Source of the DNA: Candidatus Heimdallarchaeum aukensis | Lineage (GTDB): Archaea; Asgardarchaeota; Heimdallarchaeia; Heimdallarchaeales; Heimdallarchaeaceae | DNA: 64,000 bases | Reading direction: 5' to 3' | NCBI GenBank assembly: GCA_021513695.1 | Contig: CP084166.1 | Location: 576,001 to 640,000, forward strand | Shown: piece by piece, positions 42 to 12,030 of the stretch | Numbering within the stretch: the first letter of the stretch is position 1 | Layout of the letters: every line of letters begins with the position of its first letter | The notes under the pieces: model-generated | What the model was told of the DNA's origin: nothing | What the model saw: the letters and a program-made list of their open reading frames with translations, nothing else | Databases searched by the model: none | Translations under genes and position numbers: made by a program

Positions 42-1466
42 ATGAAACTAAATAAAAAAGTGTTGACTATAATATTGTGCACAATCATCTTACTGTTAGT
101 AGGTACTTCAAATACAACTAGAGCAGTTCATCAAGAAAAGAACAGATTCGCACATACATTACACACCAATATTAGTTTAATCACTCCAATTAATATCACC
201 TCTGATGAAGATTTCTCTAAGTATGCATATGATGGTTCAGGAAGAGAAGAGGATCCATATATAATTGAGGGATATGAAATAACAGGGCAGGATGTTACAG
301 GGATATACATAGCGAATACTACGAAATATTTCATCATACGTGACTGTGTTATTGAAGGTACTAGTCAAGGAATTCATATTGTAAATGTGTCGGATGGGAC
401 AGCATTAATCACAAATAATATTTGTAAAAATATAGTAAACCAAGGTATAATCGTTGAAAACACTAATTATGCGATATTACATAACAATACTTGTAGTGAA
501 TCTAATATGTATGGCATCCATAGCCGATTCTCAGATTACCTTATATTGGAACAGAATACTTGTAATAAAAACGGAATGTGTGGAATTTTTGTAGATTACT
601 CAACTTCGACTGTGATTAGGAAGAATATTGTTATTGATAATGTGCTCTCAGGTATTATTGTACAAGATACAGTAAAAACTCTCATCTCCCAGAATTATTG
701 TTTTGATAATGATGGCATGGGTGGAATAGTGCTCTCAAGATCTCTAAATGCGACAATTATAAACAATATTTGTGTTGATGACTTTCAAGTTCAAGATGGT
801 ATTAATCTTTACAATTCAGATGGTTTTATTATAAAAAATAATACCATTTCCTATGGCAGGTATGGAATATTTGTATCTGAATCTTCACACGGGGTATATA
901 CTAATAATACTTGTATAGAAAATAGCAAATATGCTGTTTATATAAAATATGGATACAACATTTCTATCAATGAAAACAACTGCAGCGCTAATGAGCAAGG
1001 AATAAATCTTTACAACTCTTCAACAATTTATATCCACAATAATAGTATAAGTAAAAACACTATTGGACTGACTTTTGATCTCACGAATCATTCAATCATC
1101 ACTTTTAATTCATTTGAGGAGAATGAACAATATGCAATAATTATAGATTCTTCATCTTCTTCTAATCTCATCCACCATAATACGTTTGTTGACAACAACT
1201 TGCAAGGAACATCTCAAGCTTGTGACAATGGCAATAATAATACCTGGTATGACCAATCGACAAAAACTGGTAATTATTGGTCTGATAAAAAAGGAGGAAA
1301 ATATTACATAGATGGTAGTAGTAAATCGTATGATAAATATCCCCTAAAAAATCCCCCTCAACAATTTGCTGAAAAAACTTCTATTGATTTTTTCATCATT
1401 CTTATATCTTTTCTCTCTTCTACAGTTATTATGTCTTATGTCAAAAGAAACAAGTATGCTTTATGA
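42..1466 (+). CDS. secreted/membrane-anchored right-handed parallel beta-helix repeat protein (NosD/PbH1-like)
   Basis: N-terminal hydrophobic signal/anchor. Many ~22-aa repeats of the form N-N-(T/I)-(C/I)-x-x-N-x-x-G-I (parallel beta-helix). GNYWSD motif near the C-terminus, then a C-terminal TM helix plus basic tail. Paralogous to 54577..56934. Confidence 0.6.
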   Translation: MKLNKKVLTIILCTIILLLVGTSNTTRAVHQEKNRFAHTLHTNISLITPINITSDEDFSKYAYDGSGREEDPYIIEGYEITGQDVTGIYIANTTKYFIIRDCVIEGTSQGIHIVNVSDGTALITNNICKNIVNQGIIVENTNYAILHNNTCSESNMYGIHSRFSDYLILEQNTCNKNGMCGIFVDYSTSTVIRKNIVIDNVLSGIIVQDTVKTLISQNYCFDNDGMGGIVLSRSLNATIINNICVDDFQVQDGINLYNSDGFIIKNNTISYGRYGIFVSESSHGVYTNNTCIENSKYAVYIKYGYNISINENNCSANEQGINLYNSSTIYIHNNSISKNTIGLTFDLTNHSIITFNSFEENEQYAIIIDSSSSSNLIHHNTFVDNNLQGTSQACDNGNNNTWYDQSTKTGNYWSDKKGGKYYIDGSSKSYDKYPLKNPPQQFAEKTSIDFFIILISFLSSTVIMSYVKRNKYAL

Positions 1467-1727: not shown

Positions 1728-1937
1728 ATGGCTAAGAATATAGCAATCTCTGATGAACTCTACAAATTGCTGAAACGTTTAAAACGCCCTGGTGAAAGTT
1801 TTACTGATGTGATTTTAAGATCAATAAAACATTCTACCTCTATAATGGATATTACAGGTAAAAAAACAATACCCCTAGAAGAATGGGAAAAACTCAAGAA
1901 ATTATTTGAAATGAAAGAAATAGAGTTACAAGCGTAA
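1728..1937 (+). CDS. small RHH/CopG-type antitoxin-like protein (VapB-like, COG1753-like); no toxin partner seen
   Basis: Start taken at the internal Met (MAKNIAISDELYKLLKRLKRPGESFTDVILR), a typical N-terminus of archaeal ribbon-helix-helix antitoxins. The upstream in-frame extension looks spurious. Confidence 0.45.
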   Translation: MAKNIAISDELYKLLKRLKRPGESFTDVILRSIKHSTSIMDITGKKTIPLEEWEKLKKLFEMKEIELQA

Positions 1938-2166
1938 AAGAGATTTGCTTGAGCAGACGATAAAAGATTTCAATTGGTTTATTATTAGCAATAATAACAA
2001 ATCCAATCGGAAATGAATCTGAAATTCCATTGGGAAAAAATTTTTCTTTAATAGAGACACCTATTTTTATTTTTGTTTTTGGACTTTTTTCAATTCTAAT
2101 TTATTTTCAGTAAAACAAAAATTATGTGGAACTGTTGCAAAATTAACATTGACATCAAAAGAATTA

Positions 2167-3501
2167 TTATTTTAGTAATAACTGTAAAGCTGAAATTTGT
2201 TTCTGTTTAGGGTCTATAGTCTTATTTTTAAAGAAAATCCCACTATTTAACATCTCTTCATAGATAATTACTCCCAATATGTGTTTATTTATTGTTTCTG
2301 TTTTTTCGAAACATTTGTCTACTATTGGTTTAATCTCTTTGTAAAGTTCATACTTTCTAATTTCATCAGAACTATAATTGTGAAAATAGTAATCAATAAA
2401 TTGTATTATAATTACTGCATTTTTTTGGTTTAACATTTGATTCTTTTCTAATTTTTCCATTAATCTTCGTTTCAATTGACCTAATTTTGCCTTTATTCGT
2501 TTAGTCTCAACAGTTGATGGAAATTTTATTTGATTTGAAATTTGAATACATTTCTTACTTTTAATTTCGAAGACAAAACAAGATTTAATTGGAGATTCAA
2601 GAAGTTTTGTAACAGAAATTTCTTTTAAGAATTTTTTACCTTTTTCTGATTTTTTTAGTTTATATAATGTGTTTAATAAACTCACTTTATCTGACGAAAA
2701 GTAATTTTCGCCAAAGATTCTTTCCATACTATTTAGATATTGATATAAGGATAAATTTTTAGAACCCATAAAATCTTCTTCAAATAATTCCCAAGAATTT
2801 TCCAAAATTAATAGAAGAAGTTTGTCTATTTCTTCTAATACTAGCTTAGTTATGTACTCTTTATCAAACTTATTTTTATAAATTATTTTTTCTAAATCAA
2901 CTTCTAAGCTGACAGAATAATTGAGAGGGATTTTTTGAATGGCTTTTCTACATATTTCATCAAAACTCTCTTCTAATATTTTATCAACCTTATTCTCATA
3001 AAGTGAAGTGACTTCTAAATTAAATTCAATATTTTGAATGAAAATTCGAAAATCATGATTGAAATCTGAAATATCTCCATAAATAATCTTTGATACATGT
3101 TTATTTTTTAATAATTGGATATAAAGTTGGAACTCAATATATTTACTAAAGTTATTATTTCTAGTAAAACTCCTCATTTTTGATATTATTTTCTTCTGAA
3201 TTCTGCTACTTCTTTCAAACAGATTTATTTCTTTTGTAAGAAGATTTTCTATTTCGTCTAGAATATATTTATACTTTGAAGAATTACGAGTATTTTTATT
3301 TGATAAGGTCTTATTTTCAGTATAAGCTAAATTAGCTATGTTAAAAAAAATATTATGATTATAATGTTTTATAGGTACATCAACATCAGAAAAAACTCTA
3401 TCCAAACTTGGATATTTTATTATCACATCTTTTGCCTTTGTAATAAATTCATTTCGATATAACTTATCATTTTTTTTACCGCAATATGAAGAAACAACCA
3501 T
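2167..3501 (-). CDS. hypothetical protein (444 aa, Lys/Asn-rich, no recognisable motif)
   Basis: Long uninterrupted ORF in very AT-rich DNA between the antitoxin and hsdR; no Walker, nuclease or HTH motif recognised. Confidence 0.5.
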   Translation of the reverse strand: MVVSSYCGKKNDKLYRNEFITKAKDVIIKYPSLDRVFSDVDVPIKHYNHNIFFNIANLAYTENKTLSNKNTRNSSKYKYILDEIENLLTKEINLFERSSRIQKKIISKMRSFTRNNNFSKYIEFQLYIQLLKNKHVSKIIYGDISDFNHDFRIFIQNIEFNLEVTSLYENKVDKILEESFDEICRKAIQKIPLNYSVSLEVDLEKIIYKNKFDKEYITKLVLEEIDKLLLLILENSWELFEEDFMGSKNLSLYQYLNSMERIFGENYFSSDKVSLLNTLYKLKKSEKGKKFLKEISVTKLLESPIKSCFVFEIKSKKCIQISNQIKFPSTVETKRIKAKLGQLKRRLMEKLEKNQMLNQKNAVIIIQFIDYYFHNYSSDEIRKYELYKEIKPIVDKCFEKTETINKHILGVIIYEEMLNSGIFFKNKTIDPKQKQISALQLLLK

Positions 3502-3645
3502 ATAACCACTTTATACATCTATTTTCTTGATAACTACTGTTTAAAACTTTACTAAAAATGTTTCAAAAGTTTCATGTAGTTATTAAATACTGAAATTTTA
3601 TTTTTTTGAATTTATTAGAAAAAATGAATATGTAAGAGAAATTAT

Positions 3646-4056
3646 TTATTTTCTATTGTATTTTTCTGTTAGCATTCTTTTTAACCACAAATTTAGGAAT
3701 GAATTTAGTGAATCTCTACTTTCAGTATCTACCATGCTTTTTGATGGATAAACAACACTAAACAAATACTGATCTTTATAAGATAAAACTTCTGCAATTT
3801 TTTTTAATGAATCTATACGAATTACTACCTCTGGGTCAGGAACCAAATCATCATTTTGTAAAAAATAGTGACCCATTGATAGTATCATCTCGCTTTCATC
3901 ACGAGATAAAATACTAATATGTAACTCCATCAAATTTCCAGAATACAAAATTAGTTTTTCTTCAATTTCTTCAACATTTGGAATTAATTTCATCAAGAGG
4001 TCATAGTTTTTATGAAAGATAGTTTCAATTGTTGTAATTATCTGTTTATCTGACAC
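3646..4056 (-). CDS. hypothetical protein (136 aa)
   Basis: ORF directly upstream (same strand) of the 444-aa unknown and downstream of hsdR; no motif recognised. Confidence 0.4.
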   Translation of the reverse strand: MSDKQIITTIETIFHKNYDLLMKLIPNVEEIEEKLILYSGNLMELHISILSRDESEMILSMGHYFLQNDDLVPDPEVVIRIDSLKKIAEVLSYKDQYLFSVVYPSKSMVDTESRDSLNSFLNLWLKRMLTEKYNRK

Positions 4057-4116
4057 AATAATAATAATTAAGATTAGTTTAAAAATACCAAAAATAAATT
4101 ATGAACGCATGAGATA

Positions 4117-7100
4117 TTACACCGCTGTTGCCCACTCTTCACCAAACAACTGTGCTTGCTCCATTATTAATTTAATCGCATTAGGAGTTTGATCTGGTGG
4201 ATATTTATACTTTCGCAATAGTTTACGAATCTCAATACGCATGCGAGCTTGAACACTTTTTCTTACTGTGAAATCAATTGTAGCAGAATTTCGAACCTTA
4301 GCAACTAACTCTTTTGCTATTTTCTTTAATGTTTCATCACCCATTTCTCTTACAGCACTTTCATTTGTAGCTAAAGCATCATAAAAAGCAACTTCATCAT
4401 CATTTAATCCAAGTTCTTCTCCCTTTTTGAAAGCTTTTTGCATATCTTTCGCTAATTGAATCAATTCCTCTAAAATTGCAGCAGAAGCTATTGTACGATT
4501 GATATATTTGTTAATAGATTTCTGAAGTAATTCCTCAAAAGAACGAGATTGAACTAAATTCTTTTTAGCTCTAGAACGAATTTGATCCTTCAACAATTTA
4601 TTTAAAACCTCAACAGCTAAATTCTTTTGTTTTAATCCTCTAACTTCTTCAAGAAATTTATCAGAAAGAATAGAAATTTCTGGTTTATCCAATCCTGCTG
4701 CAGAAAAAATGTCTATAACATCTTCTGAAATAACAGCTCTAGAGATTAATTGTCTAATTGCATAATCAACTCTTTCTTTACGTTCTTTGGAAGGAGTAGT
4801 AGCTTTTACAAAACCAGCACGTACAGCTTGGAAAAAAGCTAAATCATCTCGAATAGCTAAAGCTTCTTCATGAGGAATAGCAAGAGAAAAGGCTTTATTT
4901 AGTGCTGAAAGGTTATCTAAAAACCTTTTTTTAGCACTTTCTGGAGTTTCATTAGGTAAATTAAGAATATGTTCCATAGCAGCAGGAAGTAATTGTAATC
5001 TTTGTAAAGCACTTCCTGTTTTAAACAAAGAATAATCAAAATTGTAAAACATATCTGAAACAATTTCATAATATGTTTTCATTAATTCTACAGCTTTTTC
5101 TTGAGGAATAGCTGTTTGTTCTCTTGACTCTACATTAGAATACCTAGATAATGCTTGCTTAAGAAAATAACCTATACCAATATAATCGACAATAAGACCT
5201 CCAGGTTTATCTTTATATACTCTATTTACTCTAGCTATCGCTTGCATTAAATTGTGTCCTTGCATTGGCTTATCTACATACATTGTATGCATACTAGGCA
5301 CATTAAAACCTGTTAACCACATATCTCTTACAATAACAAGTTTAAGTTCGTCCTCAGGATCTTTCATTCGATTTTCAATAATTTTTCTTTTTCTTTTAGG
5401 CCTAATGTGTGAACGCAATAATTGATCATCAGCAGCAGAACCGCTAATTACAACTTTAATGAAACCTTTTTGATCATCATTAGAATGCCACTCAGGCCTT
5501 AGTTTTATTATTTCATTATACAATAAAGCACAAATCCTGCGAGACATACAAACAATCATACCCTTTCCATCTATAATCTCAAGTCTTTTTTCAAAATGAT
5601 TTACAATATCCTCAGCTACTTCACGTAACCTATCGGGATCAGAAACAAGCCTTTCGACTCTTGACCACTTAGATTTCAATTTTTCTCGAGCATATTCTTC
5701 TTCATCTTCTGTGATTTCATCAAATTCTTCATCGATTTGACCCTTCAATTCTTCATTAAACTTAATTTTAACTAACCTTGATTCATAATAAATAGGAACA
5801 GTAGTTTTATCTCTTATTGCTTGTGAAATATCATAAATGCTAATATAATTACCAAAAACATGAATCGTATTTCTGTCGACAAGTTCTACAGGAGTAGCAG
5901 TAAAAGCAATAAAAGAAGCATTAGGCAGAGCTTGACGAATATAAGCAGCAAAACCTTCTTTTAATGAACCTTTTTCAGAAAGTTTTTTTCCAAAAGAATA
6001 ATGACTTCTATGAGCCTCATCAGCAATAACAATGATATTCCTCCTCTCAGATAAAAGAGGATATTGTGCATTCTCTTCAGGAAGAAATTTTTGTATTGTA
6101 GTGAAAATTACACCACCACCGGTTGTTTTAAGCAAATCCTCAATATTATCTTTTGTCGCTTCATGATTTTTTGGATTGTACCTCCTTGCTGTGGCTTGAA
6201 TAGAAGTTTGACGAAGAAGATCCCTTGATAAAGTAAAAGTTGTAAAAAGTTGGTCATCTAAATCGTTTCTATCAGTAATAACAACGACAGTAGGATTGTT
6301 AAGTAGCTGGATTAACTTTGCGGTATAAAATAACATTGTAAGACTCTTACCAGAACCTTGAGTATGCCAAACAACACCAATCTTTTGATCACCATCACTT
6401 CCAGTAGCTCGTAAAGTTTCCTTAATAGCACGATTAACAGCATGATATTGATGATAAGCAGCAGATTTCTTGACTATTGTTCTACCATCGTCTTCAAAAG
6501 TAATAAAAAATCTGATGTAATCTAAAAAACGAGAAGGTTCTAAAATACCACGAAATAAAACTTCAAGAGATAAGATTGATTGGTCAGCTAATATCTCTCC
6601 CTCAATAGTGCGCCAGGGAGTAAAACGCTCCCAATTAGCAGATAAACTGCCAGCTTTAGATTCATAACCATCACTAATAACAATTAACTCATTAGTCCTA
6701 AATAAAGAAGGAATTTCTTTTTTATAAGTCTGAATTTGATTATAAGCATCTCTTGTAGTCGTTTCTTCTTTAGATGGGTTCTTAAGCTCAATAACTACTA
6801 AAGGAATACCATTAACAAAGAGAACAATATCAGGTCGGTGATTGTGTTTGTCAGAACCAACACCTTCTATAACAGTAAATTGATTTACAGCTAAAAAATC
6901 ATTATTCTCAGGATTCTCAAAATCAATAACTCGTACTATATCTCCCTTTACACGACCATCATGGTAATAAGAGACTTCTACACCATCAACTAACATTCTA
7001 TGAAAAGAACGATTGTTTGTTAATAAATCAGGAGAATCAATACGGTTGAGTTTCTGCAAAACATCTTCAAGCACTTCTTTAGGTTTATCAGGATTAAGTT

Positions 7101-7272
7101 TATGTAAAGCTGATTTTAGTCTATCTTTAAGAATAATCTCACTATATGATAACCTTTCAGGATTATTTCCTGTTGGTGCAATATCTGGACCAAACTTGGT
7201 ATCATAACCTAATTCTCTTAAAATTTCCATAGATGCTTCTTCTAACTCTTTTTCAGTTATTTTCATAATCAA
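4117..7272 (-). CDS. hsdR: type I restriction enzyme R subunit (SF2 helicase/endonuclease)
   Basis: Helicase motif I WHTQGSGKSLTM, motif II IADEAHRSHY (DEAH), motif III FTATP, motif VI QAIARVNRV; 1051 aa. Overlaps hsdS by 20 bp. Confidence 0.9.
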   Translation of the reverse strand: MIMKITEKELEEASMEILRELGYDTKFGPDIAPTGNNPERLSYSEIILKDRLKSALHKLNPDKPKEVLEDVLQKLNRIDSPDLLTNNRSFHRMLVDGVEVSYYHDGRVKGDIVRVIDFENPENNDFLAVNQFTVIEGVGSDKHNHRPDIVLFVNGIPLVVIELKNPSKEETTTRDAYNQIQTYKKEIPSLFRTNELIVISDGYESKAGSLSANWERFTPWRTIEGEILADQSILSLEVLFRGILEPSRFLDYIRFFITFEDDGRTIVKKSAAYHQYHAVNRAIKETLRATGSDGDQKIGVVWHTQGSGKSLTMLFYTAKLIQLLNNPTVVVITDRNDLDDQLFTTFTLSRDLLRQTSIQATARRYNPKNHEATKDNIEDLLKTTGGGVIFTTIQKFLPEENAQYPLLSERRNIIVIADEAHRSHYSFGKKLSEKGSLKEGFAAYIRQALPNASFIAFTATPVELVDRNTIHVFGNYISIYDISQAIRDKTTVPIYYESRLVKIKFNEELKGQIDEEFDEITEDEEEYAREKLKSKWSRVERLVSDPDRLREVAEDIVNHFEKRLEIIDGKGMIVCMSRRICALLYNEIIKLRPEWHSNDDQKGFIKVVISGSAADDQLLRSHIRPKRKRKIIENRMKDPEDELKLVIVRDMWLTGFNVPSMHTMYVDKPMQGHNLMQAIARVNRVYKDKPGGLIVDYIGIGYFLKQALSRYSNVESREQTAIPQEKAVELMKTYYEIVSDMFYNFDYSLFKTGSALQRLQLLPAAMEHILNLPNETPESAKKRFLDNLSALNKAFSLAIPHEEALAIRDDLAFFQAVRAGFVKATTPSKERKERVDYAIRQLISRAVISEDVIDIFSAAGLDKPEISILSDKFLEEVRGLKQKNLAVEVLNKLLKDQIRSRAKKNLVQSRSFEELLQKSINKYINRTIASAAILEELIQLAKDMQKAFKKGEELGLNDDEVAFYDALATNESAVREMGDETLKKIAKELVAKVRNSATIDFTVRKSVQARMRIEIRKLLRKYKYPPDQTPNAIKLIMEQAQLFGEEWATAV

Positions 7273-7960
7273 TTTCCGCCAAAAATTTTTCTATATTAGT
7301 AATTCGAAGCCTACCTGAGATAAGTTGAGGAAGTAGAATATCTCTTAATTTAATTAAAATATTAATTTCATCCTTATTTTTTCTAATTTTTTCAAAGATT
7401 GGGTCAATTATTTCTCTAAACTTTAGTAAAGTAGTCTTATCAGGTTTTATAATCGGAATCCTAAAAAGGTTACTTTGATTAATTTTTAATTGTACTGCAC
7501 CAGTTATATAAGGTCTAATGTTTATATTCATGAGATGTAACATAACAAATTCTGTACAAAATTCATTTTTTCCTTGTATTACATGAACATGATTATTCGC
7601 CCAAAATTTTCCATGTACATATTGTAAGATGGGTTTTTCATTGTTATCAATAACTGAACCATCTTCTGCCATTAAGAGAAAAATGCCATCAAAAATGTAA
7701 TCATCAATATAGTCTAAAATACTAGCTGCCCCATAATATGGATAAATACCTTTTCTTACCTTTCTTTCTATTTTTGATAAAGGAATTCTTTTTGAATCAT
7801 ATATACTTATGACTTCTTTGAGCGTCCCAACTTCCCATCCTTTTGGTATTTCTTTATCTACTTCCTCATTATATTCAAATTCGCCATCTTTGAAAGGTTC
7901 AAAATCAATAAACCAAGATCTGAAGATAGTTTGGGCTATCTCTTCTAAAACTTTGTTCAT
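7253..7960 (-). CDS. hsdS: type I RM specificity subunit, half-size (central conserved motif + one TRD + C-terminal conserved helix); probably 5'-truncated
   Basis: Begins with the HsdS central conserved block IFRSWFIDFEPF and ends with the C-terminal conserved LRDILLPQLISGRLRI. Only 235 aa versus about 400-450 for two-TRD HsdS. No hsdM upstream; an IS lies 130 bp away. Confidence 0.7.
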   Translation of the reverse strand: MNKVLEEIAQTIFRSWFIDFEPFKDGEFEYNEEVDKEIPKGWEVGTLKEVISIYDSKRIPLSKIERKVRKGIYPYYGAASILDYIDDYIFDGIFLLMAEDGSVIDNNEKPILQYVHGKFWANNHVHVIQGKNEFCTEFVMLHLMNINIRPYITGAVQLKINQSNLFRIPIIKPDKTTLLKFREIIDPIFEKIRKNKDEINILIKLRDILLPQLISGRLRITNIEKFLAEIDYENN

Positions 7961-8092
7961 CTTCTGATTGAGTTCAATTTTTTGATCTATAGAGCTTAAT
8001 AATTTACTAATAAATTTTTGTATTCTTAAATTAGGTATAGGAAGTGGGATATTTTCAATAATTGAGGTATTTAAGGAAGGTCTAGTAGTACC

Positions 8093-8855
8093 GGTAGTGT
8101 CTAGTTTTCTTCCGACAAAAATATTTGTGGGGACTCTAATAGTAAGATATGAACATTCAAAAACTATCTACTCTTTTTAAGAGATGCAGAGTCCCCAAAA
8201 AAATAATAATAAAAGCTATTTATGAATATATTGGTTCAAAGAATGGGTTGAGGACAGTAGCATGGAAGAATGGTTTAACGCATCAAACATTATGGTATTG
8301 GGTAAAGAAGTTCAGGCTCTTTAGGGAAAGTTTACATAGAGTTGTAGCAGAGAGAGGGGGAATACCAGAGATTATAGTAGTAGATGAAACAGAGATTAGG
8401 ACCTCTCAAGGCTCAATATATCTGTGGTTCGCGTTAGATCCTTACAACAAGACTTTACTGGGTTTTAGTATTACTAAAGGACGGAGTAATCTTGAATGTT
8501 TACTAACTTTCCGTTATTGGCTCAAATGTTGGGGTTTTAAGCCTCGTATTGTCGTTACAGATGCAGGAGTATGGTATCCTGTCTTACTTCGTCTAGGTAT
8601 CAAAATCTCCGTTATCAAAGGTGGTTTACGCTCCTATATTGAACGTTTTAATGCTACTCTTAAGAGTTATCGTTGGTTTCATTCTATTCTCCACTGCACT
8701 TGTCCTATCCGTGCCGTCTATGGCTCTACTCATCTTTCTGGTTTTCTTACTCTCTTTATGCTCTATTATAATTTCGTTCGTCCTCATCAGAGCTTAGGAC
8801 ATCCTCCCCTTAGTTCCTTTTTACCTAGGAGGTGGTATAAAAACTAGACACTACC
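8093..8855 (+). mobile_element. IS6-family-like insertion sequence (~763 bp) with 16-bp terminal inverted repeats
   Basis: Left IR ggtagtgtctagtttt (8093..8108) and its perfect reverse complement aaaactagacactacc (8840..8855), flanking a single transposase ORF. No clear target-site duplication. Confidence 0.7.
8149..8847 (+). CDS. DDE transposase, IS6-like
   Basis: 232 aa. VVDETEIR...VVTDAG...RPHQSL blocks resemble IS6/IS26 Tnp (DETY...D...E spacing). The N-terminal 64 aa are repeated at 43001..43195. Confidence 0.75.
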   Translation: MNIQKLSTLFKRCRVPKKIIIKAIYEYIGSKNGLRTVAWKNGLTHQTLWYWVKKFRLFRESLHRVVAERGGIPEIIVVDETEIRTSQGSIYLWFALDPYNKTLLGFSITKGRSNLECLLTFRYWLKCWGFKPRIVVTDAGVWYPVLLRLGIKISVIKGGLRSYIERFNATLKSYRWFHSILHCTCPIRAVYGSTHLSGFLTLFMLYYNFVRPHQSLGHPPLSSFLPRRWYKN

Positions 8856-9122
8856 AGTCAAAAATAGAAAAAAAATATAAAAGGCTTTTCTAAATAACAA
8901 CATTAGTTAAAGTATGTGGATTCTTACTAACAACCTTTGAATATAATTCATTTTTTATTTTTTGAATTATCTTCGCTCTATATTCCTCTTCTTTTTTGAA
9001 TCTAAATTAAACAATATAATTTTGTTCAACAGATAATTTTATATTGGGTTATAACCCATTACCGCCCAGAAGTCTAAAAAATAAAATAAGAGGCGATAAA
9101 AATAGGATATGGATCAGGAAGA

Positions 9123-9524
9123 ATGCGTGGTGGAGGAAGAGGAAGAGGAGGAGGATTTGGATTAGGAGCAGGAGGAGCATGTATTTGTCCAGTGTGTGGT
9201 ACAAAAGCTGCTCATGCAAGAGGGGTACCTTGTTTTCAATCTCGATGCCCACAATGTGGAGCACCAATGACTAGAGCAGAAGCTTATGCCGGCCCCCAAC
9301 CACAGAATAGTAAAAACGTACAAGAAGAGAAAGAATACAAATTTGATACAGCAGCAAAACCGCATATAGACCAATCTAGATGTAAGGGGTGTGCTTTATG
9401 CATTAATAGTTGTCCTTTTAATGTTATTAGAATGGAAAATGGTCATGCAATTATTGATTCTTCACGCTGCAGAAGTTGCGGAGTATGTATTTCTTCTTGT
9501 CCTGAAGGGGCGATAGTTTATTAG
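9123..9524 (+). CDS. Gly/Arg-rich (RGG-like) N-terminus + 4-Cys zinc ribbon + 2x[4Fe-4S] ferredoxin domain protein
   Basis: MRGGGRGRGGGFGLGAGG, then CICPVCG...CPQCG, then two CxxCxxCxxxCP motifs (CKGCALCINSCP, CRSCGVCISSCP). Confidence 0.6.
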   Translation: MRGGGRGRGGGFGLGAGGACICPVCGTKAAHARGVPCFQSRCPQCGAPMTRAEAYAGPQPQNSKNVQEEKEYKFDTAAKPHIDQSRCKGCALCINSCPFNVIRMENGHAIIDSSRCRSCGVCISSCPEGAIVY

Positions 9525-9556
9525 AAAATGTAAAAAAAAATTAAAAAATACTCTTT

Positions 9557-9934
9557 TTATATTTTTAGTGGATCAATAATTATACTTTCTTTATCAAAAG
9601 TTGCCAAGTAAAAGTCTTCTGTTAAAGTGAGACAACCAGTTGGACAAATATCTTGACATAGTGCACAGAAGCAACATTTTCCTAAATCTATTTGTGGATA
9701 AGTTTTTGGGTATTTCTCTTTATATTCTTCTTTTACTTCTACCATCTTTATCGCTTTATTTAAACAAATTTTGGCACAAGATCCACAAGAGATGCAGTTA
9801 TCGATGTCAAACTTATGTTTTGCTCTCTCTCTTTCTGATATCTCTACTTTCTCCATTGGAAAAAGAACAGTCATTGGTCTTTTGAACAAATTCTTGAATA
9901 TTTCTGAAATAATACTTAGTTTCATTGTTATCAC
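9557..9934 (-). CDS. NuoI/EchF-like 2x[4Fe-4S] ferredoxin subunit
   Basis: CISCGSCAKIC and CCFCALCQDICP motifs; 125 aa; last gene of a B-C-D-I operon. Confidence 0.8.
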   Translation of the reverse strand: MITMKLSIISEIFKNLFKRPMTVLFPMEKVEISERERAKHKFDIDNCISCGSCAKICLNKAIKMVEVKEEYKEKYPKTYPQIDLGKCCFCALCQDICPTGCLTLTEDFYLATFDKESIIIDPLKI

Positions 9935-9935
9935 C

Positions 9936-11048
9936 TCATCTATCTACATCAGCAGGACATTGGTTTAAACTCCAATAAATAGCAGGGACGTCAGCATAAT
10001 AAGAATCAGTAAGTAAATGCTTTAAAATAGGTATCATGTGAGTAAAAGAAGGTCCTCTGATCTTAACTCTATAAGGAGTCTTTTTTCCTGTAGCAATCAT
10101 ATAAATAGCTCCTTCTCCTCTTGATAGTTCATTACGTGTATAGGTTTCTCCTTTAGCTTTGCGGAAGTGAACAATAGGTTTCATATTAGACGTTTTTACT
10201 TCCCCTTTTGGCATTCTGTCAATTGCTTGCTTAACTATCTTCTTGCTTTCTTCTATTTCTTGCATAGCTATCAAATATCTTGAATAAGCATCTCCTTCAT
10301 CAAAAACTGGAATTTCAAACTCCAATTCATCATAAATTTCATAAGGATCATCTCTTCTAACATCTGAAGCAACCCCGCTAGCCCTTAAAATAGGTCCTGT
10401 TGCACCTAGTTTAATAGCTTCTTCTTTCGTTAACACTCCTACTTCTTTGAATCTTTCCAACCATACAGGATTTTCTTTTTTTGCGAATTTATGCATATAG
10501 TCAATCTTTTCAAATAAAGTAAGAATCTTTTTTTCTGCTTTCTCTGGTAAATCTTTTCTTACTCCTCCAGGGCAGATATATCCAGCTGGATAAAGTCTTC
10601 CTCCAGTAATATAATCGAACACATCTAGCATATAGTCTCTGTATCCCATTGCAACATTAAATCCAGTAGTAAATCCTGTTCCCATTGACATTACAGCGTA
10701 CCATATAAAGTGCGATTGTATTCTTGACAGTTCTGCAAGTATAACTCTGATGTATTTAGCTCTTTCTGGGATATCATAACCCATTAAAGTATCAACAGCT
10801 TCTGCATGGAGAAGATTCCACTGAAGAGGTTCTAAAACACATATTCTATCTGATAATACAGAGTTTTGCATTGGTTCTCTATATTCCATTAACTTCTCAA
10901 AACCCCTATGTAAATATCCTGGATCAACTACAGCTTTCATCACTCTTTCTCCACGAAGCTGAACTCTCACTGAAAAGTTTCCTGAACCAGGGTGAGCTGG
11001 TCCAAAGTACATTTCAAAATCTCCTTGTCTTTCTTCTATTTCAGTCAT
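9936..11048 (-). CDS. NuoD / [NiFe]-hydrogenase large-subunit-like protein with degenerate Ni-Fe ligand motifs
   Basis: 370 aa. N-terminal RICVLE...W where hydrogenases have RxCGxCxxxH; C-terminal NQCPADVDR where hydrogenases have DPCxxCxxH. Only the first Cys of each pair is retained. Confidence 0.8.
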   Translation of the reverse strand: MTEIEERQGDFEMYFGPAHPGSGNFSVRVQLRGERVMKAVVDPGYLHRGFEKLMEYREPMQNSVLSDRICVLEPLQWNLLHAEAVDTLMGYDIPERAKYIRVILAELSRIQSHFIWYAVMSMGTGFTTGFNVAMGYRDYMLDVFDYITGGRLYPAGYICPGGVRKDLPEKAEKKILTLFEKIDYMHKFAKKENPVWLERFKEVGVLTKEEAIKLGATGPILRASGVASDVRRDDPYEIYDELEFEIPVFDEGDAYSRYLIAMQEIEESKKIVKQAIDRMPKGEVKTSNMKPIVHFRKAKGETYTRNELSRGEGAIYMIATGKKTPYRVKIRGPSFTHMIPILKHLLTDSYYADVPAIYWSLNQCPADVDR

Positions 11049-11593
11049 TTTTTCACCTCAAAATAAATATCTTCTCGGGGATTACTTTCATCATAATATT
11101 CTTGTTGTACATATTTTCGCCAGTCGAAGTCCTTTCTAAACGGAGGAGGGCCAGTCCAGTCTTCCAACATTAGTGGAGTAAGATTAACGTTTCCTTCAAA
11201 AATCACGCCATAAAACTCATGGCATTCTCTTTCACATAATTCTGCATTTTTACTCCATAGAGAAGTAACAGAAGATATTGTAGGATTTTCTCTATTTATC
11301 CTTGTTTTTATCGTTAAAAGCATTTTTTCTTTATAGGACCATAAATGGTAAGCAATTTCAAAATTATTCTTTTCAATCCAATCTGTAACACTTATTGTAG
11401 AAAGATGTTCAAAACCCATATCATAAGCAATCGAACAAGCATCTACTATTTCTTTAGGTTCAATAGATACCCAAAGTCTTTTTTTTCTTTGGATATTAAC
11501 CTTCTTGTTTAATTTCTTACTTAAAGCCGTTACAATTTTTTCTTCTTTATCCAAATTATTCTTCTCTTTCTCTACTACACTCATTTTACTCAC
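11045..11593 (-). CDS. NuoC (30 kDa subunit)-like protein
   Basis: 182 aa with the ...ECHEFYGVIFEGNVNLTPLMLEDWTGPPPFRKDFDW block typical of NuoC; 4-bp start/stop overlaps with neighbours. Confidence 0.8.
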   Translation of the reverse strand: MSKMSVVEKEKNNLDKEEKIVTALSKKLNKKVNIQRKKRLWVSIEPKEIVDACSIAYDMGFEHLSTISVTDWIEKNNFEIAYHLWSYKEKMLLTIKTRINRENPTISSVTSLWSKNAELCERECHEFYGVIFEGNVNLTPLMLEDWTGPPPFRKDFDWRKYVQQEYYDESNPREDIYFEVKK

Positions 11594-12030
11594 TCATCCG
11601 GCATTCCATGAACATGTTGAACTATTTTGAAAACAGCATCAAAAACAGCTTCAGGTCTGGGAGGACAACCAGGAATATACATGGTTACAGGAAGATAATC
11701 TTCAAGCTTCTTAACAGTGTTATATGAATCCCAATACATCCCACCTGTTATTGGACATGAACCCAATGCTAAGACAAACTTTGGATCAGGCATTTGCTCA
11801 TAAATCTTTTGTGCTCTCTTCATTGATTTTGGTGTCTGAAAACCAGCAATAAACAACACATCAGCCTTTCTTGGTGAATTAACTGTTATCATTCCAAAAC
11901 GTTCCATATCCCATCTTGAACCTACAACTGGAACAAGTTCAGTAAATCCACAAGAGTTAAACCAATTAAAAACCCAAATAGCTTTTACAAAATATTTCAT
12001 CACAGTTTTCTTCTTAACCATCCTTTCCAC
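11590..12030 (-). CDS. NuoB / hydrogenase small-subunit-like [4Fe-4S] protein
   Basis: Motifs GSCPITGG and IPGCPPRP present. The usual tandem CC motif reads SCGFTE, so one of four canonical Cys is missing. Confidence 0.8.
   Translation of the reverse strand: MERMVKKKTVMKYFVKAIWVFNWFNSCGFTELVPVVGSRWDMERFGMITVNSPRKADVLFIAGFQTPKSMKRAQKIYEQMPDPKFVLALGSCPITGGMYWDSYNTVKKLEDYLPVTMYIPGCPPRPEAVFDAVFKIVQHVHGMPDE

Follow-up and report, generated by a model that had tools for sequence, protein, structure and literature searches.

The stretch of DNA analysed here (the window, 64,000 nucleotides (nt) of the Candidatus Heimdallarchaeum aukensis genome) carries, beside the remains of a type I restriction-modification (RM) operon, three genes whose function and mutual relationship are the subject of this study. 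The first, on the forward strand (1728-1937), encodes a 69-amino acid (aa) VapB-type ribbon-helix-helix (RHH) protein. The second, on the reverse strand (2167-3501; UJG41299.1, locus tag K9W45_02280), encodes a 444-aa protein annotated as hypothetical, which belongs to a rare and unnamed family with a predicted PD-(D/E)xK nuclease core. The third, also on the reverse strand (3646-4056), starts with GTG and encodes a 136-aa protein that Pfam assigns to DUF6908/DUF1249; 60 nt separate it from the end of hsdR, the intact gene for a 1051-aa type I restriction subunit (4117-7272, reverse strand). The initial annotation had placed these three open reading frames (ORFs) downstream of hsdR in the most AT-rich part of the window, and both statements are borne out: the coordinates were confirmed, and the 1-kb bins 2001-3000 and 3001-4000 have the two lowest GC contents of the window (24.0% and 23.8%). 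By feature, GC content is 23.4% in the 444-aa gene, 27.5% in the 136-aa gene and 32.4% in hsdR, for 30.7% in the whole window. The 444-aa and 136-aa genes are co-directional, with a 144-nt spacer of 18% GC between them. The paper describing the Ca. H. aukensis genome (PMC8813620) does not discuss the locus.

An ORF as long as the 444-aa gene is not expected by chance: at this base composition about 9% of codons should be stops, which puts the probability of 444 open codons near 1e-18. Searches of its product against Pfam, NCBIfam, PHROGs and PADLOC gave no match. The initial annotation had described both reverse-strand ORFs as devoid of recognisable domains, which is right for this one, for which the four libraries are empty, and wrong for the 136-aa ORF, whose matches to DUF6908 and DUF1249 lie above the gathering scores. 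How, then, did the family of the 444-aa protein become visible? A word-index homologue search returned only a near-identical fragment, and it took HMMER, run exhaustively against 1.84 billion representatives, to reveal the family: 43 sequences at E ≤ 1e-3, of which 34 also pass 1e-10 and 12 pass 1e-30, with full-length homologues reaching E = 8e-56. Most members are 400-460 aa long, and their alignments run from end to end with 25-35% identity. Three members of about 700 aa (P0010, P0013 and P0027, found in the loci L007, L009 and L025) carry a C-terminal extension of some 270 aa to which Pfam matches nothing. Between P0010 and P0013 full-length identity amounts to 47%, and the extension of P0027 looks different. 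All members with a taxonomic label are archaeal, belonging to Heimdallarchaeaceae and to a metagenome-assembled genome of Methanosarcinales. The family was found at one locus in 185,579 species genomes and at two loci in metagenomes. Across the family mean column identity is 21%, and ten positions are near-invariant: N50, E123, Y141, D150, E163, T165, K350, Q355, Y376 and N426. A few polar residues kept near-invariant against so low a mean identity is what one expects of an enzyme. E123 is present in 35 of 35 sequences, D150 in 33 of 35 (Glu in the other two), E163 and Q355 in 36 of 36 and K350 in 35 of 36, and position 165 is Thr in 35 of 36 and Ser in the remaining one. The protein is basic, with an isoelectric point (pI) of 9.3.

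The AlphaFold model of the 444-aa protein (predicted local distance difference test score 91.8, predicted template modelling score 0.88) consists of an N-terminal helical domain, a core spanning approximately residues 114-201, a helical insert of about 100 residues and a C-terminal alpha/beta part. In the core the predicted order of elements is helix 114-132, strands 136-141, 151-155 and 158-166, helix 171-190 and strand 195-201, which is the canonical alpha-beta-beta-beta-alpha-beta arrangement. The model places E123 in the first helix of the core, D150 immediately ahead of strand two and the E163-x-T165 motif within strand three, and it displays both the fold and the acidic residues that characterise the PD-(D/E)xK superfamily. 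By predicted structure, the closest proteins are the CdiA-CT toxin domains of Burkholderia pseudomallei 1026b (4g6v) and Escherichia coli EC869 (4g6u) and an XisH-like protein (2okf). None of these shows detectable sequence similarity to the 444-aa protein which, unlike CdiA-CT, is not the toxin domain of a secreted polymorphic toxin. Further structural matches are SfsA, N.BspD6I, NucC, LlaBIII, Bax1, Avs4, Can2, NgoMIV, BsaWI, SduA, PaqCI, FokI, Hjc, Cfr10I, McrC, TnsA and VRR-NUC. On this modelled architecture, the 444-aa protein probably has a PD-(D/E)xK nuclease fold. The presence of Hjc, Bax1, SfsA and the tRNA-splicing endonuclease among the matches might suggest a housekeeping nuclease of DNA repair or RNA processing. 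Such a role is very unlikely: the family is very rare (43 sequences at E ≤ 0.001 among 1.84 billion, one locus in 185,579 species genomes), its neighbourhoods differ between genomes, its base composition at this locus is atypical, and the gene has been lost by frameshift in a sister strain (see below).

The neighbourhoods of the family fit a place in defence islands. In L009, a 700-aa member closes a tightly packed, co-directional series formed by hsdS, a gene for a 180-aa protein, hsdR, a YgjP-like gene and four unknown genes, and is followed by a tyrosine integrase gene on the opposite strand. In L025 (1-6299), the 3' end of hsdM is followed by genes for a 182-aa coiled-coil protein, a 611-aa AAA_15/AAA_21 ATPase, HsdS and a 703-aa member, the last of which overlaps the end of hsdS. 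Small proteins are embedded in both RM operons, one of 182 aa between hsdM and hsdS in L025 and one of 180 aa between hsdS and hsdR in L009. In Methanosarcinales (L006 and L021), the member comes after genes for MarR, an N6_N4 DNA methyltransferase and YdjM. In L022 and L023, it lies between CDC48_N and DUF1643 genes, preceded by a DrmD-like PLD+SNF2 gene (PADLOC, 8e-152) and a CARF-winged helix-turn-helix regulator gene. In L004 and L005, it is accompanied by a Schlafen (SLFN)/AlbA_2 protein gene and a weakly HEPN-like neighbour, and in L007 only by a weakly HEPN-like neighbour of 184 aa. Seven contexts, including the window, are informative; type I RM genes occur in three of them (the window, L009 and L025), a methyltransferase in one (L006), DrmD-like and CARF genes in one (L022) and SLFN/AlbA_2 in one (L004), numbers that come from a small sample and have no background rate to be compared with. 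Defence genes recur in this way around the family in unrelated genomes, a pattern that fits cargo of defence islands. No single neighbour is common to all the contexts and therefore the gene behaves as an autonomous unit.

The integrase of L009 also bears on a different possibility, namely that the family belongs to mobile elements, where its nuclease would for instance help an archaeal element to integrate, home or replicate, and not to host defence. The patchy distribution of the family would agree with this, since the 90%-identity clusters examined are all singletons except for the two-member cluster of the window protein, and so would the insertion sequence (IS) present within the window locus. 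On the other hand, no member was detected in the viral contigs of IMG/VR, nor in PLSDB plasmids and GenBank phages by tblastn, and no integrase, transposase or replication gene recurs in the other contexts. We consider a mobile-element function quite unlikely for the family. Cargo of defence islands, the reading that we prefer, has precedents. PrrC and RloC are anticodon nucleases embedded in or attached to type I RM operons and combine an ABC-ATPase with a HEPN-like part. PADLOC also includes 'guilt-by-embedding' PDC/HEC candidates (mentioned in PMC12988326). The 444-aa family resembles these RM-embedded defence genes in that its members are placed inside type I RM operons or close them (L025, L009), or lie beside hsdR as in the window, and in that a single gene carries a predicted nuclease effector. 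It differs from them in several respects: the PADLOC models, PDC candidates included, show no homology to the family, the fold of PrrC and RloC is not the one predicted for the 444-aa protein, and other members of the family do not stand beside RM genes at all.

Several results weigh against taking the 444-aa protein for a functional nuclease of defence islands. First, the signature Lys of the (D/E)xK motif is replaced by the conserved Thr; in this the family departs from the CdiA-CT and XisH-like domains, and K350 and Q355, which are candidates for completing the active site in the model, are located some 185 residues downstream. A relocated Lys occurs in some members of the PD-(D/E)xK superfamily. 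The geometry of the active site is itself a prediction. Second, comparison of the model with the Protein Data Bank (PDB) by Foldseek gave nothing below E = 0.07 and no match to the full architecture, sequence searches of the PDB with single proteins and with family profiles gave no significant match, Pfam gave none for 37 family members, and a permissive Pfam search (E ≤ 10) with the nuclease-core segments of 28 members returned only scattered chance matches. Third, PADLOC's candidate sets do not contain the family, whose 37 members gave only isolated matches at chance level (E ~0.003). Fourth, around ten contexts were read, three of which (L008, L010 and L024) were uninformative. Finally, the gene seems to be dispensable in a sister population. 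Two contigs from two samples (L001 and L002) contain the same locus at 97.7% identity to the window, and in both a single-C deletion at codon 338, at a site that is not a long homopolymer, splits the gene into ORFs of 339 and 97 aa, so that K350 and Q355 are lost from the main product. The ratio of non-synonymous to synonymous substitution rates (dN/dS) of the gene against the L001 copy, about 0.36-0.5 and based on few events, is weak evidence of constraint.

These last observations raise the question of whether the 444-aa gene is a decaying passenger, that is, horizontally acquired AT-rich DNA which is eroding together with a broken RM operon and has no present function in this lineage. Besides the frameshift and the dN/dS, one can invoke the near-even spread over codon positions (6:5:7) of the 18 substitutions that separate the gene from the L001 copy, its GC content, the lowest in the window, and the state of the RM operon, whose hsdS is truncated by the IS and whose hsdM is missing. 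Against this, the copy in the window is intact over its 444 codons and keeps every near-invariant residue; synonymous changes are over-represented (7 of the 18, with 11 non-synonymous, when about 3.3 would be expected); and the family is conserved over its full length across distant archaea. Moreover, defence genes are typically lost in some strains, and such loss is no argument against function. We regard decay without present function as rather unlikely, and the frameshift together with the weak constraint is compatible with ready gain and loss of the gene. The initial annotation had singled out the 444-aa protein as the best candidate effector of the region, and the proposal remains plausible in view of the conserved family, the predicted PD-(D/E)xK core and the defence-gene neighbours; neither homology to housekeeping families nor a lack of co-localization with defence genes was found for it.

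The history of the 136-aa gene appears to be a different one. Its product matches DUF6908 (PF21849; E = 2.8e-12, 47.0 bits for a cut-off of 27, profile positions 6-117 of 123) and DUF1249 (PF06853; E = 1.1e-10, 42.0 bits for a cut-off of 25), in agreement with the NCBI annotation of the Ca. H. aukensis protein to which it is 100% identical. In a metagenome contig (L003), a 98%-identical hsdR is followed after 6 nt by an 89%-identical DUF6908 gene, and further downstream an 83-aa ORF and a gene for a leucine-rich-repeat protein replace the 444-aa gene and the RHH gene. The leucine-rich-repeat gene of this variant locus occupies positions 2617-3474 of L003; a leucine-rich-repeat gene of internalin-like type has been described in the mobile element HeimM2 (PMC8813620). 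Comparison of the junctions shows how the two arrangements differ. In L003 (1595-1640) the DUF6908 gene starts with an ATG located 6 nt past the hsdR stop codon, whereas in the window, L001 and L002 a 60-nt AT-rich insertion (4057-4116 in the window, 17% GC) lies right behind this ancestral ATG (ATG CGT TCA TAA). As a consequence, the gene restarts at a GTG within the insertion and is uncoupled from hsdR. Some 25 nt upstream of the GTG, the insertion holds the stretch TTTTTAAA, which could act as an archaeal TATA box. Between the 136-aa gene and its L003 copy dN/dS is about 0.33. These comparisons argue firmly that, in this lineage, the DUF6908 gene travels with hsdR and not with the 444-aa gene.

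This has a direct bearing on the idea, put forward in the initial annotation, that the 136-aa protein is the partner of the 444-aa protein, and on the related one that the two ORFs, possibly with the RHH gene, constitute one new abortive-infection or toxin-antitoxin-like system. The two genes are indeed adjacent and co-directional, and the layout is kept in L001 and L002, but these contigs represent the same locus at 97.7% identity and do not count as independent evidence. L003 keeps hsdR and DUF6908 in the absence of the 444-aa gene and the RHH gene, and the 144-nt, GC-poor spacer parts the two genes in the window. In addition, a six-frame search with hidden Markov models found no DUF6908 or RHH gene in other loci of the 444-aa family, no member of the 444-aa family in DUF6908 loci and no RHH gene near other members of either family. 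A partnership of the two proteins therefore finds no support, and a single system made of the three genes is highly improbable. More plausibly, and with moderate confidence, we see here the variable end of a small defence locus in decay, where three independent genes have come to lie side by side.

What could the 136-aa protein do beside hsdR? The DUF6908 profile, built to include the plasmid homologues, recovered 265 relatives at E ≤ 1e-3 that align end to end with the protein, which resembles in this respect the DUF6908/DUF1249 family, that of E. coli YqiB. The relatives examined are bacterial, whereas the copy described here is archaeal and directly follows hsdR. They sit in regions of plasmids or integrative and conjugative elements. 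In betaproteobacterial plasmids (of which pAOVO01 was typed as conjugative) the DUF6908 gene is the first one upstream of parA-parB, and in a plasmid-like element of Saprospiraceae the genes for ParA, Toprim, SSB, Dam, DUF6908 and a DUF6908 paralogue succeed one another near a TrwC relaxase gene. The tandem paralogues of this element are found in L016-L018 (4487-5325 in L016). The Saprospiraceae layout resembles a conjugative leading region or an anti-defence island; leading regions rich in SSB and orphan methylases have been described (PMC11541004), and neither that paper nor its supplements list the DUF6908 family. A scan of genome contigs for homologues of the 136-aa protein and a tblastn search of phages gave no match. 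PADLOC gave none either, and 47 family members produced isolated matches at chance level (E ~0.003). We found neither DUF6908 nor DUF1249 nor the protein accessions mentioned in any paper, and the titles and abstracts on yqiB and VC0508 hold no functional data. Two other possibilities were considered and discarded. A role as a strongly acidic DNA mimic like Ocr or ArdA is at odds with a pI of 5.05 (family median 5.7), which is only mildly acidic, and with a helix/beta-sheet/helix fold like that of VC0508 and p32. A DUF6908 gene is not a usual follower of this type of hsdR, being missing downstream of the two plasmid hsdR homologues inspected.

The RHH protein matches VAPB_antitox (PF02697) with E = 9.7e-12 and 45.9 bits (cut-off 27.9); an alternative ATG at 1707 would extend it to 76 aa. 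It shares its antitoxin-type domain with VapBC type II toxin-antitoxin modules and differs from them in lacking an adjoining PIN/VapC gene. Indeed, as the initial annotation had noticed, no toxin gene accompanies it: no ORF or remnant of a toxin, PIN/VapC or other, was found in any frame in 1460-1730 and 1900-2175, and therefore it is not a toxin-antitoxin module as it stands. The copy in L001 differs by one amino acid. Judged from its sequence, the RHH gene product is a solitary VapB-type protein with predicted DNA-binding capacity, an orphan without recurrent link to either of the other two genes. Between the RHH gene and the 444-aa gene, the sister-population contigs have about 110 nt of extra sequence (L001 2238-2350, falling between window positions 1985 and 1992). 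An obvious miniature inverted-repeat transposable element was considered for this segment and rejected, no second copy being present within the window.

The RM operon beside these genes is incomplete. HsdR has the domains HSDR_N, SWI2_SNF2 and T1RH-like_C, matches the PADLOC REase_I model with 1154 bits and is about 50% identical to HsdR proteins of bacterial plasmids. The adjacent hsdS (7253-8089, reverse strand; annotated ORF 7253-7960, 235 aa) is truncated at its 5' side: its matches to the specificity-subunit profiles (Specificity_I), in Pfam and PADLOC alike, are confined to their C-terminal half, and the frame extends upstream of the annotated ORF, remaining HsdS-like up to the IS edge at 8090. 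The IS (8090-8858, forward strand, about 770 bp) is delimited by 19-nt terminal inverted repeats (8090-8108 and 8840-8858) that bracket a gene for a 232-aa rve-type transposase (8149-8847, forward strand), whose Pfam matches (rve, rve_3) are weak and below the cut-offs. At this locus, the interval from the IS to the next gene (8859-9122) has no HsdS or HsdM reading frame. With an intact hsdR, a truncated hsdS and no hsdM at the locus, the type I RM system is not complete, and its description as a remnant in the initial annotation was accurate, hsdS being cut by the IS and no hsdM lying between the IS and the hydrogenase genes beyond it. The plasmid relatives of HsdR have the gene order hsdM-hsdS-hsdR, so hsdM was lost through the IS event together with the 5' half of hsdS. 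Between hsdR and its L003 copy there are 35 synonymous and 3 non-synonymous changes (dN/dS ~0.02); with such strong constraint, the truncation may be recent, or else HsdR may still function together with subunits whose genes lie elsewhere. Directly beyond the IS come ferredoxin and hydrogenase genes; as judged from the translations, a gene for a 4Fe-4S protein and genes like those of group-4 [NiFe]-hydrogenase or complex-I subunits (9123-12030) form the housekeeping flank of the island. Upstream of the RHH gene, the ORF map shows a gene for a NosD-like beta-helix protein (42-1466, forward strand). A tRNA, an Rfam family and a convincing direct repeat were all sought at the borders of the island and none was found.

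Taken as a whole, these data lead us to propose that the 444-aa protein may well be a stand-alone nuclease cargo gene product of archaeal defence islands, a model-based proposal in which our confidence and our doubt are evenly balanced. The gene would encode a stand-alone, metal-dependent nuclease of PD-(D/E)xK fold, in which catalysis would proceed through E123, D150 and E163, with T165 at the canonical Lys position and K350 and Q355 contributed by a helix further on. Target recognition or regulation might fall to the N-terminal helical domain and the insert of about 100 residues. The gene would move between archaeal genomes as cargo of defence islands, often residing within or beside type I RM operons, and the protein would most likely be an autonomous effector, restriction-like or abortive-infection; nuclease activity, substrate and role in defence are what we infer from fold, conservation and neighbourhood. 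The 136-aa DUF6908/DUF1249 protein would be an accessory of hsdR and not of the nuclease. Going further, we tentatively suggest, as a scenario that has more doubt than confidence attached to it, that the family represents a not yet described immune nuclease, encoded by a single gene and apparently archaeal, whose active site is a variant of the PD-(D/E)xK one (E...D...ExT plus distal K and Q) and which would serve as a second-line effector in or by type I RM operons, for example when RM is inhibited, and that DUF6908 proteins might modulate restriction enzymes, serving bacterial conjugative elements at establishment, with a copy captured here downstream of hsdR.

A defence role of the 444-aa family is at this stage a candidate one, and the finding, a divergent family within a well-known superfamily and genomic setting, is not surprising in kind. 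If neither this lead nor the one on DUF6908 holds, the locus would be an eroding defence island. Few defence systems beyond CRISPR and RM have been characterised in archaea, and in Asgard archaea in particular. In this respect, a survey reported many archaeal genomes without detectable defence systems and considered that families specific to archaea have probably been missed (PMC12988326). The 444-aa gene defines a family that escaped every curated library used here, and its candidate catalytic residues E123, D150, E163, T165, K350 and Q355 make it directly testable. The DUF6908/DUF1249 gene, found next to hsdR in this archaeon and in plasmid establishment or partition regions in bacteria, may offer the first context-based lead for this widespread family.

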